Source: Candidatus Gottesmanbacteria bacterium RIFCSPHIGHO2_01_FULL_46_14
GTDB lineage: Bacteria > Patescibacteriota > Microgenomatia > UBA10105 > UBA927
Direction: 5' to 3'
Length of the DNA: 64,000 nucleotides
Assembly (NCBI GenBank): GCA_001780895.1
Contig: MFJJ01000010.1
Location: forward strand, 898 to 64,897
Part shown: one piece after another, positions 15,429 through 18,681 of the stretch
How the letters are laid out: every line of letters begins with the position of its first letter
Position numbering within the stretch: position 1 is the first letter of the stretch
Made by a program: the position numbers and the translations under genes
The notes under the pieces: generated by a model
What the model was told of the DNA's origin: nothing
Database searches by the model: none
The model's input: the letters and a program-made list of their open reading frames with translations, nothing else

Positions 15429-16865
15429 TTACAGGCGGGGAAATAACGATGGTTGAGATAGTATCGTCGGCCCCCTAAATTGCTCAAGAATTTTTTGGGC
15501 GGTTTGTGGCAGAAACGGTTGGAGGAGGGTGGCGATTTCGATAATTTGGCTGATTGCTCGGTCAAGTACTTTGATTAAATCATTGCCAGATAACTTCCAC
15601 GGTTGGTTCTCGTTGATAAACTTATCTACTGTTTTTACTCTCTCCCAGACATACGCAAGCGCATCATTGAATCTGTACTCTTCAAGCGCTTTTTTGTATT
15701 CTCCGGTATTGACGTCTTGAAAATTTACATTTTTCATTTTACACTTTTGACTTTCTGCCAGTTTCGCGATTCTAGCCACTAAATTTCCAAGTCCGTTGGC
15801 AAGATCTGCATTGTAAAGTTCTTTAAATCTTCTCTCTGAATAATCGCCGTCACTATAACTAGGTATTTCGCGGGTGAGATAGTACCGGACTGCGTCAGTT
15901 CCATATTGATTAAGAACTTTTATGGGATCCACAACATTGCCAACCGTTTTACTCATTTTTTGCCCATCAACAGTCAAGTAGCCATGAACGAAGAGTTGCT
16001 TGGGTAATGGCAGACCCGCGGATTTGAGAACTGCCGGCCAGTAGATTGCATGAAACCGCAAGATTCCTTTGCCGATAATCATAAGGTCAGCTGGTGCCCA
16101 TTTGGTAAATAGTTCGTCATTCCAGCCTAAGCCAATCCCACTGTAATAAATGTTGTTCGCATCAAACCATACATACATAATTTGATCGGGATCTCCAGGG
16201 ACAGGTACGCCCCATCCTTTGGCGCGTTCTTTAGTTCGGGAAATAGAAAAATCTTCTAAGCCTTTTTTTATAAAAGCTACCGTTTCATTTTTTTTGCTCT
16301 GAGGGATAATAGAGAGAGCATCAGAGATGATTAACTCCTCGAAAAATTTTTGGTATTTTGACAAACGGAAAAAATAATTTTTTTCTGCGATAAGATCAAG
16401 CTTCTTGCCGGGATGTTCAAAACATTCACCGTTTTCATTGAGTTCATCGGATGTATAAAAAGCTTCACAACCAACGCAGTAGAGCCCCTCGTATGATTTT
16501 TTATAAATATCCCCACTTTTTGTACAGAGTTCCCAGAGTTTTTGAGAGGATAAAAAGTGATTTTCGTTTGTCCCACGTTGCCATATATCAAAATGAACAT
16601 TGAGCTTTTTGGCCAGATCAAGAAATTCTTGTTGGTGAATGTCGCAGAATTTATGTGGTTCTACTCCAGCCTTTTGGGCGGCCTGAATAATTTTTAGTCC
16701 ATTTTCATCGGCTCCACACAGATACAGTACATCCTCATGGAGAAGCTTGTGATATCGTCGAATAACGTCTGAGTAGATAAATTCCTGTGCATGGCCGATG
16801 TGAGGCGCAGCGTTGACGTAAGGAATTGCGCTATGGAGGTAGAATTTATTTGTCATAATCGTCAT
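15429..16865 (-). CDS. metG: methionine--tRNA ligase (short form)
   Basis: HIGH (APHIGHAQEF) and KMSKT motifs. 478 aa. Confidence 0.85.
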   Translation of the reverse strand: MTIMTNKFYLHSAIPYVNAAPHIGHAQEFIYSDVIRRYHKLLHEDVLYLCGADENGLKIIQAAQKAGVEPHKFCDIHQQEFLDLAKKLNVHFDIWQRGTNENHFLSSQKLWELCTKSGDIYKKSYEGLYCVGCEAFYTSDELNENGECFEHPGKKLDLIAEKNYFFRLSKYQKFFEELIISDALSIIPQSKKNETVAFIKKGLEDFSISRTKERAKGWGVPVPGDPDQIMYVWFDANNIYYSGIGLGWNDELFTKWAPADLMIIGKGILRFHAIYWPAVLKSAGLPLPKQLFVHGYLTVDGQKMSKTVGNVVDPIKVLNQYGTDAVRYYLTREIPSYSDGDYSERRFKELYNADLANGLGNLVARIAKLAESQKCKMKNVNFQDVNTGEYKKALEEYRFNDALAYVWERVKTVDKFINENQPWKLSGNDLIKVLDRAISQIIEIATLLQPFLPQTAQKILEQFRGPTILSQPSLFPRL

Positions 16866-17068
16866 TGTACCATCAAAAAACCTCCTTGCGGAGGTTATTA
16901 AAATTCCAGATTATAACCTCCGCTACAAGACGGCTTGCATTGCCATCAACGTGGAGGTTTGGGTTTTCATATTATTTACTGTGTTTTCGCACAAACAGGG
17001 CGCCGAGCAAAGCGACAAAGGCCAGAGCGAAGAGATATAAAATGAGATTATTTTCTATCTGATTCATA
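16866..17068 (-). promoter_or_regulatory. metG leader: putative attenuator with four GGAGGTT/AACCTCC segments and a 31-codon upstream ORF
   Basis: Reading the minus-strand transcript: a uORF (MNQIENNLILYLFALAFVALLGALFVRKHSK, about 17068..16973) is followed by segment 1 AACCTCCAC (~16959-16951), segment 2 GCGGAGGTTAT (~16923-16913), segment 3 ATAACCTCCGC (~16898-16888) and segment 4 GGAGGTT+UUUU (~16885-16875). Pairings 1:2, 2:3 (11 bp perfect) and 3:4 (terminator, 7 bp plus U-run) are mutually exclusive. Confidence 0.45.
16875..16896 (-). terminator. intrinsic terminator-like hairpin (AACCTCC-GCAA-GGAGGTT + U-tract) about 10 nt upstream of the metG start codon
   Basis: 7-bp stem, 4-nt loop, U-run. 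Its 5' arm is shared with an alternative 11-bp antiterminator stem. Confidence 0.45.
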
Positions 17069-17258
17069 AGTCAATAATATAGCTTGCAAGGTAAAAAAGC
17101 AACACAATGACAACTCCCCCGATAAATATCTGCAACGAGAATGGTCTGTCGTCTAAGAATTGACCAAACACAAGCGCTATTGCGACCAAATTTCCCAACT
17201 CCATGAGTTTTTCTGATAATCGGGATCGAAAGGGTTTACGGAAAACAATTCTCTTCAT
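17064..17258 (-). CDS. hypothetical small membrane protein
   Basis: 64 aa with two hydrophobic helices. Confidence 0.3.
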   Translation of the reverse strand: MKRIVFRKPFRSRLSEKLMELGNLVAIALVFGQFLDDRPFSLQIFIGGVVIVLLFYLASYIIDL

Positions 17259-17275
17259 GTTTCAAGAATACCACG

Positions 17276-17623
17276 TCACCGTTTTGATAGCAGGAGCTCA
17301 AGGGAGGTGAGGCAAGCAAGAAGCAAAATGAGATAGAGCGGTTCGCGAAGGTTGAGGATTTGAAGGACGAGGTAAGTCGTAAGCCCTAGGGATAAAAGAA
17401 CAGAACGTCGTACATTATTTAAGAGGTAGAGGAGTATCCAGAAACAAGAGACAAATAGTAATACAAAAAAAATACCAAACAAATGCCATGCATTGGGTTC
17501 GTAGCTATTAATAAACCACGCAAAGCCACTAAAACTTGTCAGTCCCAAAACCAACCACCAGATAGACCGCGGATGTTTCTCGTGACGCATATCGTGAGTC
17601 AATTGTAGCGGGGTAGATCCCAT
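17276..17623 (-). CDS. hypothetical membrane protein
   Basis: 115 aa with 3 TM helices. Confidence 0.3.
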   Translation of the reverse strand: MGSTPLQLTHDMRHEKHPRSIWWLVLGLTSFSGFAWFINSYEPNAWHLFGIFFVLLFVSCFWILLYLLNNVRRSVLLSLGLTTYLVLQILNLREPLYLILLLACLTSLELLLSKR

Positions 17624-17643
17624 GCTACAATATCAAAACTTCT

Positions 17644-18681
17644 ATGACACAAGATCTTCTCCTTATAATTTTTTCTATTCTTTTGGGATTTGGGGCACTT
17701 ATTTGGATTATCAGGCGCGAACTAGGCAAGCTTAGCGAGTCGAAGGATGATTCGACCTTAACAGAATGGCTCAAGTCGATGCAGATTTCGATTGAGCATA
17801 CCAATAAAACATTAAACGAAGCGATGCGCGGATCGACCAGTGACGTCGCAAAATTATTACAAGCAAATACGAAACAGCTCAACGAACGTTTGGATACGGC
17901 AGCCAACGTGATCGGCGATCTCAAAAAAAATTTGGGAGAAATGAGCGAAGTTGGCCGCGGTATCAAAAGCTTGCAGGAATTTCTTCAATCACCAAAACTT
18001 CGCGGCAACATCGGCGAACAGGTCTTGCAGGATATGATCGGACAGACGTTTCCGAAAAACTCGTTTCACCTCCAGTATTCTTTTAAGTCCGGCGTCAAAG
18101 TCGATGCCGTCCTCAAAACTGACGCAGGACTTCTCTGTATCGACTCGAAGTTTCCCATGGAAAACTTCAACGTGATGCATAAAGGAGAAACCGAAGCAGA
18201 TCGGGCACGTGCAAAGCGGGAATTTATGGCAGATGTCAAAAAGCACGTGAGCGATATTGCCAAGAAATATATATTGCCCGAAGAAGGCACGATGGATTTT
18301 GCGCTCATGTATATTCCCTCGGAAGGCGTCTACTACGAAATTGCCAACATGAATGAGCTCATGGAATTTGCTCGAAAGCAGCGGGTCTACCCCGTCTCCC
18401 CCAATACGCTCTACGCGCACCTTCAAGTTCTTCTTCTCAGTTTTCAGGGAAAAGATTTAGAACAAAAATCAAAACAGGTGTTTCAGCTGCTTCGCGCGAT
18501 ACAAAAAGATTACGGGAAGGTAGAAGAAAATCTCGGTGTTCTCGGCCGCCACGTCAATAACGCATATAACAGCATGAGTACGGTGACTTCAACATTCGGA
18601 CTTCTCGGCCAAAAACTCTCGCAAACCAACACGCTCGGAGACGGCAATGAAGAAGAAAGTCAGCTAAAAATAGAGGGATAA
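17644..18681 (+). CDS. rmuC: DNA recombination protein RmuC
   Basis: N-terminal TM helix, coiled-coil region, and a C-terminal RmuC nuclease-like region (GEQVLQDMIGQTFPKN...DAVLKTDAGLLCIDSKFP). Confidence 0.65.
   Translation: MTQDLLLIIFSILLGFGALIWIIRRELGKLSESKDDSTLTEWLKSMQISIEHTNKTLNEAMRGSTSDVAKLLQANTKQLNERLDTAANVIGDLKKNLGEMSEVGRGIKSLQEFLQSPKLRGNIGEQVLQDMIGQTFPKNSFHLQYSFKSGVKVDAVLKTDAGLLCIDSKFPMENFNVMHKGETEADRARAKREFMADVKKHVSDIAKKYILPEEGTMDFALMYIPSEGVYYEIANMNELMEFARKQRVYPVSPNTLYAHLQVLLLSFQGKDLEQKSKQVFQLLRAIQKDYGKVEENLGVLGRHVNNAYNSMSTVTSTFGLLGQKLSQTNTLGDGNEEESQLKIEG

Follow-up and report, generated by a model that had tools for sequence, protein, structure and literature searches.

A candidate methionine-responsive leader-peptide attenuator upstream of metG in Gottesmanbacteria-like Patescibacteria

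In Escherichia coli, the synthetase genes pheST lie behind pheM, a leader open reading frame (ORF) rich in cognate codons, and mutually exclusive terminator and antiterminator hairpins provide homeostatic feedback on transfer RNA (tRNA) charging. A comparable arrangement is found upstream of metG, the gene for methionine--tRNA ligase (MetRS), in a 64-kb stretch of DNA from Candidatus Gottesmanbacteria (hereafter the window, meaning the whole 64,000-nucleotide stretch). As in pheST, a leader ORF with cognate codons precedes a synthetase gene, the hairpins exclude one another, and charging would feed back on expression. Unlike pheST, the codons specify Met rather than Phe, sequence similarity is absent, the leader ORFs are apparently mostly leaderless, the hosts are Patescibacteria, and a hydrolase of S-adenosylmethionine (SAM) belongs to the predicted regulon. 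The four-segment 1:2/2:3/3:4 logic is that of the trp (trpL; Rfam Trp_leader), his, leu, thr and ilv leaders, in which a ribosome terminating at the stop codon masks segment 2 and a stalled ribosome masks segment 1. In contrast to these leaders, no Rfam leader model matches the element, its CCUCC/GGAGG arms are invariant, and it would control a synthetase and a salvage gene, with no biosynthetic operon in the neighbourhood. The predicted function is therefore like that of pheST, trp and his, yet the element is outside every curated Rfam family.

Classical attenuators have been predicted upstream of trpS and leuS in Streptomyces (PMC1262725) and before hisS paralogues in Bacillus (PMC2965389). 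The element described here resembles these in its position upstream of a synthetase gene outside Proteobacteria. However, the Streptomyces and Bacillus leaders serve other amino acids in other phyla, and neither PMC1262725 nor PMC2965389 reports a metG or Met leader. In mycobacteria, polycysteine leaderless short ORFs sense the amino acid for the downstream operon, several loci with this common signal form a 'ribulon', and the output is translational, through unmasking of the ribosome-binding site (bioRxiv 10.1101/834739). The present leaders would likewise be leaderless sensory short ORFs with cognate codons (−10 evidence in 14 of 15 members, the window being the exception), but their output would be an intrinsic terminator with a U-run, and Met stands here where Cys stands there. 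The T-box of Firmicutes metS/metG also senses tRNA-Met charging through a terminator/antiterminator switch before a synthetase gene. It differs in binding uncharged tRNA via Stem I and the T-box bulge, neither of which is present in the leader of ~95 nt, where the sensor would be the translating ribosome. Searches of a limited full-text collection turned up no Met leader peptide, metG attenuator or leader-peptide attenuation in Patescibacteria, which does not prove novelty.

The metG leader and its four pairing segments

The coordinates of the leader features refer to the minus strand of the window. metG occupies 15429..16856 (475 aa, ATG 16856) or extends to 16865 (478 aa, ATG 16865, an alternative start that adds MTI); the NCBI start is the second ATG (16856), giving 475 aa, and the product matches the methionine--tRNA ligase of Candidatus Gottesmanbacteria RIFCSPHIGHO2_01_FULL_46_14 at 100% identity. 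Upstream of metG lies a leader ORF of 15 codons plus a stop, MKTQTSTLMAMQAVL (16923..16970), which has homologous Met-rich ORFs at 14 other loci. Its codons are ATG AAA ACC CAA ACC TCC ACG TTG ATG GCA ATG CAA GCC GTC TTG TAG. Two of the 14 internal codons are Met codons (16938..16946: ATG at 16946-16944, GCA, ATG at 16940-16938), both in frame with the leader ORF, and the segment 2 GGAG follows these AUG codons at a distance of 16-22 nt.

The ORF also holds segment 1 (AACCTCC, 16959-16953), formed by its Thr-Ser codons ACC TCC, and an internal hairpin, GAUGGC-AAUGCAA-GCCGUC (16929..16947), which is seen in the minimum free energy (MFE) fold and is possibly an RNA polymerase pause hairpin. The stop codon TAG (16925-16923) ends on the first G of segment 2 (GCGGAGGTTAT, 16923-16913), the partner of segment 1. 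Segment 3 (ATAACCTCCGC, 16898-16888) supplies the 3′ arm of the antiterminator as well as the 5′ arm of the terminator, which is completed by segment 4 (GGAGGTT, 16885-16879). The four AACCTCC/GGAGGTT elements that an earlier note on this DNA had reported on the metG strand are thus present within 81 nt, and the two stems it had described, the 11-bp 2:3 stem and the 7-bp 3:4 stem with its U-run, are both in the sequence. The window contains seven copies of AACCTCC/GGAGGTT in 64 kb (both strands) vs 7.6 expected, but four of the seven fall within those 81 nt in alternating orientation, a clustering that exceeds chance.

The 3:4 hairpin, with 7 bp and a GCAA loop followed by the U-run, makes up an intrinsic terminator (AACCTCC-GCAA-GGAGGTT plus T6, 16875..16896). 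A terminator scan independently flags 16896-16879, and the T-run (16880-16875) lies nine nt upstream of ATG 16865. The competing 2:3 stem has 11 perfect bp and a predicted stability of −17.5 kcal/mol vs −10.9 kcal/mol for the terminator. Folding of the 136-nt leader yields −39.1 kcal/mol (z = −3.5), with 2 of 200 shuffled sequences folding equally well, and in the window, as in seven other members of the family described below, segments 1 and 4 are paired with each other in the MFE structure. RNA folding had been named as a check in the earlier note; the leader is structured, and folds constrained by a ribosome footprint give alternative structures.

The leader peptide proposed at first was a different one, a 31-codon hydrophobic ORF (orf31, MNQIENNLILYLFALAFVALLGALFVRKHSK, 17067..16972). 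This ORF exists, with 12 nt between its end and segment 1 and with no Met codon inside it, but as a leader peptide it was rejected: besides lacking Met codons it is not conserved, gives no tblastn match in related loci, and is without a counterpart in all other family members. Since the 15-codon ORF carries Met codons, the earlier puzzle of a Met-free leader is removed.

The element is likely to sense charged tRNA-Met as a ribosome-mediated leader-peptide transcription attenuator, as judged from its sequence and from the comparisons that follow. Translation of the 15-codon ORF would proceed as RNA polymerase moves through the leader. With ample Met-tRNA, the ribosome would reach TAG and mask segment 2, so that the 3:4 terminator halts RNA polymerase ahead of metG. 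Under a shortage of Met-tRNA, the ribosome would stall at the two AUG codons and cover segment 1, leaving segment 2 free to form the 11-bp 2:3 antiterminator, with read-through into metG-tatD. Without translation, 1:2 and 3:4 would form together and transcription would terminate. In other members of the family the gene for a SAM hydroxide adenosyltransferase (SAM hydrolase) would be driven too, raising both methionine supply and tRNA charging. Regulated termination itself is what we infer from this arrangement.

A family of fifteen loci

The family comprises the window and 14 further non-identical copies, found in Gottesmanbacteria-like Patescibacteria contigs (L-numbers denote sampled loci), and is apparently a conserved, undescribed attenuator family in Patescibacteria. 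The trp-type attenuator claimed in the earlier note, with exclusive 1:2/2:3/3:4 pairings and a terminator before metG, recurs with the same architecture in the 14 other loci. At the level of the family, an attenuation mechanism is highly probable.

Three sampling routes were used. MetRS homologues in one-genome-per-species contigs led to L006 (Gottesmanbacteria, 68% identical), which has a clearly homologous element encoding MTNQTSMMMEMPAD. The terminator sequence, searched in metagenomes, led to L020, L033, L047, L065, L078 and L099; the pattern matched 119 loci, mostly unrelated terminators, with seven members among them (eight with L134, a duplicate of L033). Exact-protein look-ups of MetRS/SAM_HAT homologues, which are independent of the RNA sequence, added L138, L264, L265, L267, L268, L269 and L270. 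Viral contigs scanned for ACCTCCATGATGATG gave 120 chance matches and zero true members. A covariance model built from eight members scores 14 members at 50-100 bits; its match to the window spans 16873-16970 (90.6 bits), and a search of the window with it returned this single copy and none elsewhere.

All 15 members share the order leader ORF, segment 1, internal hairpin, segments 2, 3 and 4, and U-run, and all have the potential to form both the 2:3 antiterminator and the 3:4 terminator. The leader ORFs have 14-23 codons with 2-5 internal Met codons, as in MNTKTSMMMAMLAV, MIETYKMMEMMMTTF, MISQTSVMMDMMNAS and MKQTLKTSTMAMVAV, each followed by a stop codon, the last having the M-A-M pattern of the window. 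Of the 212 internal codons, 52 are in-frame ATG, and ATG out of frame occurs once; the average over 2000 shuffles was 3.3, and the highest count was 12. The arrangement of the Met codons varies (MMMxM, MM, MMxM, MMxMMM, MxMMxM, MMxMM and MxM). Relative to the RNA structure, 12 of 15 members have their last Met codon ending 13-16 nt ahead of the segment 2 GGAG, and the stop codon overlaps segment 2 or lies 1-6 nt ahead of it in 14 of 15. The divergent L265 has an ORF that continues through segment 2 and stops after it.

Across the family, the 2:3 hairpin has −9.5 to −19.5 kcal/mol vs −10 to −13.5 kcal/mol for the terminator and is the stabler of the two in 14 of 15 members, the window having the longest 2:3 stem. 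Footprint-constrained folding, which assumed a ribosome covering −15 to +12 nt around the A site, predicts the terminator in 15/15 members with the ribosome at the stop codon. With the ribosome at the first or last Met codon, 2:3 is predicted in 13/15, and the window gives 2:3 at both positions.

Support from covariation comes mainly from the 1:2 helix (88% paired in 14 sequences) and the internal hairpin (76% paired), each of which contains two base pairs with both partners altered. L020 carries AAAACCCC:GGGGUUUU, for instance, and L047 has CACCUCC:GGAGGUG. In the 14-sequence alignment the terminated conformer (1:2, internal hairpin and 3:4) is 88% paired vs 30-60% when the partners are slid, with five two-sided pair changes and a covariation score of 0.157 vs 0.124 for shuffled alignments, 0 of 500 shuffles scoring as high. 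The core of segment 2, CGGAG, is invariant in the 14 aligned members, with GGAG in 15/15; the terminator arms CCTCC/GGAGG are invariant in 15/15, as are the GGAGG/CCUCC arms of segments 2-4 as a whole. The terminator loop is GCAA in 13 members, GTAA in L267 and AAGC in L265, which also has a different extended 2:3 pairing (GGAGGUUUUUGG/CCACAAACCUCC). Conservation of the pairings in relatives, another check named in the earlier note, holds in that the pairings are kept within the family; the invariant 2:3 and 3:4 cores allow no covariation test.

These comparisons bear on the reading of the leader as a ligand- or tRNA-binding riboswitch (T-box-like, or for SAM or Met), or as an operator bound by MetRS in the manner of E. 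coli thrS, with the short ORF incidental. metG is T-box-controlled in Firmicutes, and the folding z-score of the leader would suit such a reading. However, Rfam searches gave zero families in the leader region (16000-18000, E ≤ 10), T-box included, zero cis-regulatory RNA matches in the whole 64-kb window at the gathering score, and nothing relevant in the 14 family loci and the L264 spacer. What is conserved is the reading frame, the Met codons and the position of the stop codon, whereas the stretch linking segments 2 and 3 differs among members in both sequence and length, and no conserved CAU anticodon-like loop can be read in the sequences. A riboswitch or operator is accordingly extremely unlikely. 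T-box elements, SAM riboswitches and known leader families were ruled out by the absent Rfam matches, in line with the earlier note's remark that no T-box consensus is evident, and a MetRS-binding tRNA-like operator was ruled out by the non-conservation of the CAU loop.

A second RNA module stands between the U-run and the next gene in five members (L006 2894-3003, L264 2367-2500, L268, L270 and L047). It consists of a hairpin, GAUGG(YURC)...(GYAR)CCAUC, with two-sided changes in this first stem, followed by AAUCC(R)CC...GG(Y)GGAU, and it has no Rfam match. In the window and L078 only its first bases (GATGG) remain.

Promoters, the window copy and alternative readings

A −10 box lies 7-10 nt upstream of the leader start in 14 of the 15 members, two of which also have a TTGACA −35 box, implying that the leader ORFs of those 14 are leaderless or nearly so. 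Within the window, an SD-like (Shine-Dalgarno-like) motif occurs within 18 nt of the ATG in only 5 of 49 ORFs of at least 150 aa, and many of the large ORFs have a TANNNT box 6-8 nt upstream of the ATG. Leaderless mRNAs thus look common in this Gottesmanbacteria genome, in keeping with the −10 boxes ahead of the leaders.

Several points weigh against attenuation, some concerning the family and others the window copy. Methionine limitation also hits the initiator tRNA, which complicates the classical model. Seven members were found via the terminator sequence itself, an ascertainment bias to which the invariance of the 2:3 and 3:4 cores is in part due; the eight members found without the terminator pattern likewise keep CCUCC/GGAGG. 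Because these cores never vary, covariation speaks neither for nor against these two pairings, and no equilibrium fold of L006 or L033 favours 2:3. The element is also missing from the closest relatives L001, L002, L004, L140, L142 and L143 (MetRS 72-83%), and the nearest of these, L001, L002 and L004 (MetRS 83%), are without the leader and without the 64-aa and 31-aa ORFs that precede it in the window.

The points that concern the window copy also favour a rival explanation, in which the hairpin is a plain terminator of the inserted orf64-orf31 unit, insulating metG on its own leaderless promoter, and the Met ORF is a decaying relic. In L001, L002, L004, L140, L142 and L143, a full promoter, TTGAGN-17-TARAAT, sits within the final codons of the membrane-protein gene upstream, its −10 box falling 6-8 nt ahead of the metG start. 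This promoter is split in the window by a ~400-nt insertion (orf64, orf31, leader and attenuator) that is missing in the closest relatives. The −35 box TTGAGC (17301-17296) is now distant from the −10 box TACAAT (16869-16864), which has gained a TGn extension. The resulting extended −10-like box, TGgTACAAT (16864..16872), stands 7 nt ahead of ATG 16856, where relatives have an equivalent box, and is the probable promoter of a second, attenuator-independent leaderless metG mRNA; TTTTTTGATGGTACAAT is common to the window and L078. Some metG transcripts would thus probably start downstream of the attenuator and bypass it. The earlier note had named a metG transcription start site downstream of the elements as telling against its proposal, and the −10 box between terminator and metG bears this out in part. 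The leader itself has no promoter of its own: no −10 box lies at the proper distance, and an AATAAT abuts the ATG. Moreover, the window leader has just two Met codons, reading ACG TTG where relatives read ATG ATG, so that two of the usual Met codons are lost.

Set against this rival, the window antiterminator, with its 11 perfect bp at −17.5 kcal/mol, is rated the strongest of the family, and the ORF is uninterrupted, its stop codon reaching into segment 2. A plain terminator requires neither segment 1 nor segment 2. The M-A-M pattern of the window is shared with L270, which combines it with a proper promoter. Finally, the leader ATG (16970) follows the orf31 stop codon (TAA, 16974-16972) after a single T, which suits translational coupling. 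A terminator without regulation is unlikely on this balance, and that the window copy is still a working attenuator is moderately probable.

For the attenuator reading, the lack of a leader promoter means that translation of the window leader must come from a longer transcript without an SD. The minus-strand order is a 115-aa membrane-protein ORF, a 64-aa ORF (orf64), orf31, the leader region, metG and tatD, with rmuC upstream of this gene set on the opposite strand. orf64 (17064..17258) is a hydrophobic ORF with 84 homologous cluster representatives at E ≤ 1e-3, of similar length (mostly about 60-70 aa), and is called on sister contigs by gene callers; it looks like a genuine small membrane-protein gene of an unannotated family. 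TGgTATTCT stands 6 nt ahead of its ATG, and the transcript with the leader in it probably has orf64 as its first gene. orf31 overlaps orf64 (ATGA), and translational coupling of the leader ATG to the orf31 stop is possible, making it plausible that the window leader is translated through a coupling chain from orf64 to orf31 to the leader. A Pfam scan of orf64, orf31 and the 115-aa ORF gave zero matches, and strain-level copies of the window locus are identical, without a microdiversity signal. The probable presence of a basal leaderless metG transcript means that the attenuator would only add or withhold upstream read-through, and it lowers confidence in the quantitative weight of the window copy. 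The attenuator would then add a starvation-inducible component above the basal promoter.

The stretch between terminator and metG also bears on a translational switch, in which the GGAGG of segment 4 would be the SD of metG or of a coupled mini-ORF, kept covered by segment 1 or segment 3 unless 2:3 forms. A mini-ORF, ATG GTA CAA TGA (16862..16873), begins 7 nt past the segment 4 GGAGG, and its TGA overlaps ATG 16865. Mini-ORFs of 3-4 codons occur at the same distance in about 6 of 15 members, L078, L270, L047 and L006 among them, and the MFE pairing of segments 1 and 4 in the window and seven others would fit sequestration. However, so small a share of members is itself an argument against this reading, and the spacing between segment 4 and the start of the following gene varies between about 7 and about 150 nt in the family (in the window 15 nt to ATG 16865 or 24 nt to ATG 16856), which means that segment 4 is not a conserved SD of the regulated gene. 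In the window GGAGG is not at SD distance (about 5-10 nt) from the metG start, the spacing suiting only the 3-codon mini-ORF. Furthermore, every member has a terminator-like tract of five or more T residues after the hairpin, the window having six, and SD use among large ORFs in the window is rare, as given above. A purely translational switch is very improbable.

The earlier note had also suggested that the SD/anti-SD-like elements could control metG translation in addition; with variable spacing and rare SD motifs, this is doubtful at best. It is rather unlikely, too, that the arms, GGAGG in segments 2 and 4 and CCUCC in segments 1 and 3, also engage the anti-SD of 16S ribosomal RNA and couple transcriptional and translational control in one RNA, within a genome where SD sequences are otherwise hardly used. 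In such a variant, segment 2, just 3′ of the stop codon, would hold the terminating ribosome and prolong masking. Segment 4, once freed, would load ribosomes on the mini-ORF (16873-16862) with re-initiation at ATG 16865, and an SD-driven MetRS with an extended N-terminus would arise from read-through transcripts alone.

Downstream genes and significance

metG is within the downstream operon in 12 of 15 members, and SAM_HAT (PF01887/PF20257) is the first downstream gene in 9 of 15. metG follows directly in the window, L006, L020 and L078, and after an MTS methyltransferase gene in L033. SAM_HAT is followed by metG in L047, L138, L264, L265, L267 and L268, in three of which a glyoxalase or cupin gene stands between. 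L099 has a 99-aa ORF, glyoxalase and metG, and L065, L269 and L270 have SAM_HAT alone. The upstream genes vary among loci, including a 502-aa protein, toxin-antitoxin genes and membrane proteins. Of seven SAM_HAT loci picked regardless of RNA, six have the leader; L266, which is without it, is also without a nearby metG. SAM_HAT (DUF62) enzymes convert SAM to adenosine and L-methionine, and several of the SAM_HAT matches are named 'S-adenosyl-L-methionine hydrolase (adenosine-forming)' by the Joint Genome Institute (JGI). Since SAM_HAT frees methionine from SAM, such a set of regulated genes would be a sensible answer to a shortage of methionine.

Other leaders were seen among the sampled loci. 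A second short-leader family with a Y/A-W-H-Y/F motif (e.g., MNINSYWHYDDLPKRGVAR and MSMNSYWHYFDLLTRGAAI, each ending at a stop codon) occurs upstream of the CCTCCGCAAGGAGG terminator in L049, L070, L072, L080, L085, L090 and L091. As judged from N-terminal sequences, the genes behind it are Asp/Glu-racemase-like, HAD-like, M20-peptidase-like and like phosphoenolpyruvate (PEP)-utilising enzymes. In L126 the same terminator follows a Leu-rich leader, MKIISRINNLSLLLLRSRGEVG, and precedes a leuA-like gene whose N-terminus resembles 2-isopropylmalate synthase; in L053 it follows a Tyr/Phe-rich leader, MNTQRNSYYFFFRNSF, and precedes an apparent sugar-kinase gene fragment. An identical CCTCCGCAAGGAGG-U terminator also stands directly before metG in L118, L079, L131 and L032 without a Met-rich leader ORF, and may be an attenuator remnant or a simple terminator of the upstream gene.

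Gene regulation in the uncultivated Patescibacteria (Candidate Phyla Radiation, CPR) is almost unknown. The practical yield of this analysis is a covariance model and an annotation rule for ORFs of 14-23 codons that gene callers miss or replace with spurious ORFs. If the proposed mechanism is true, the element would be a methionine-specific leader-peptide attenuator, an amino-acid specificity for which no report was found. Specificity for Met is not an obvious choice, as AUG is also the start codon and the initiator tRNA needs the same synthetase. The mostly leaderless leader ORFs would carry the mycobacterial 'ribulon' idea to another phylum and to a transcriptional output. Ultimately, the link between MetRS and SAM hydrolase suggests that auxotrophic cells may break down SAM to regain methionine when they are short of it.

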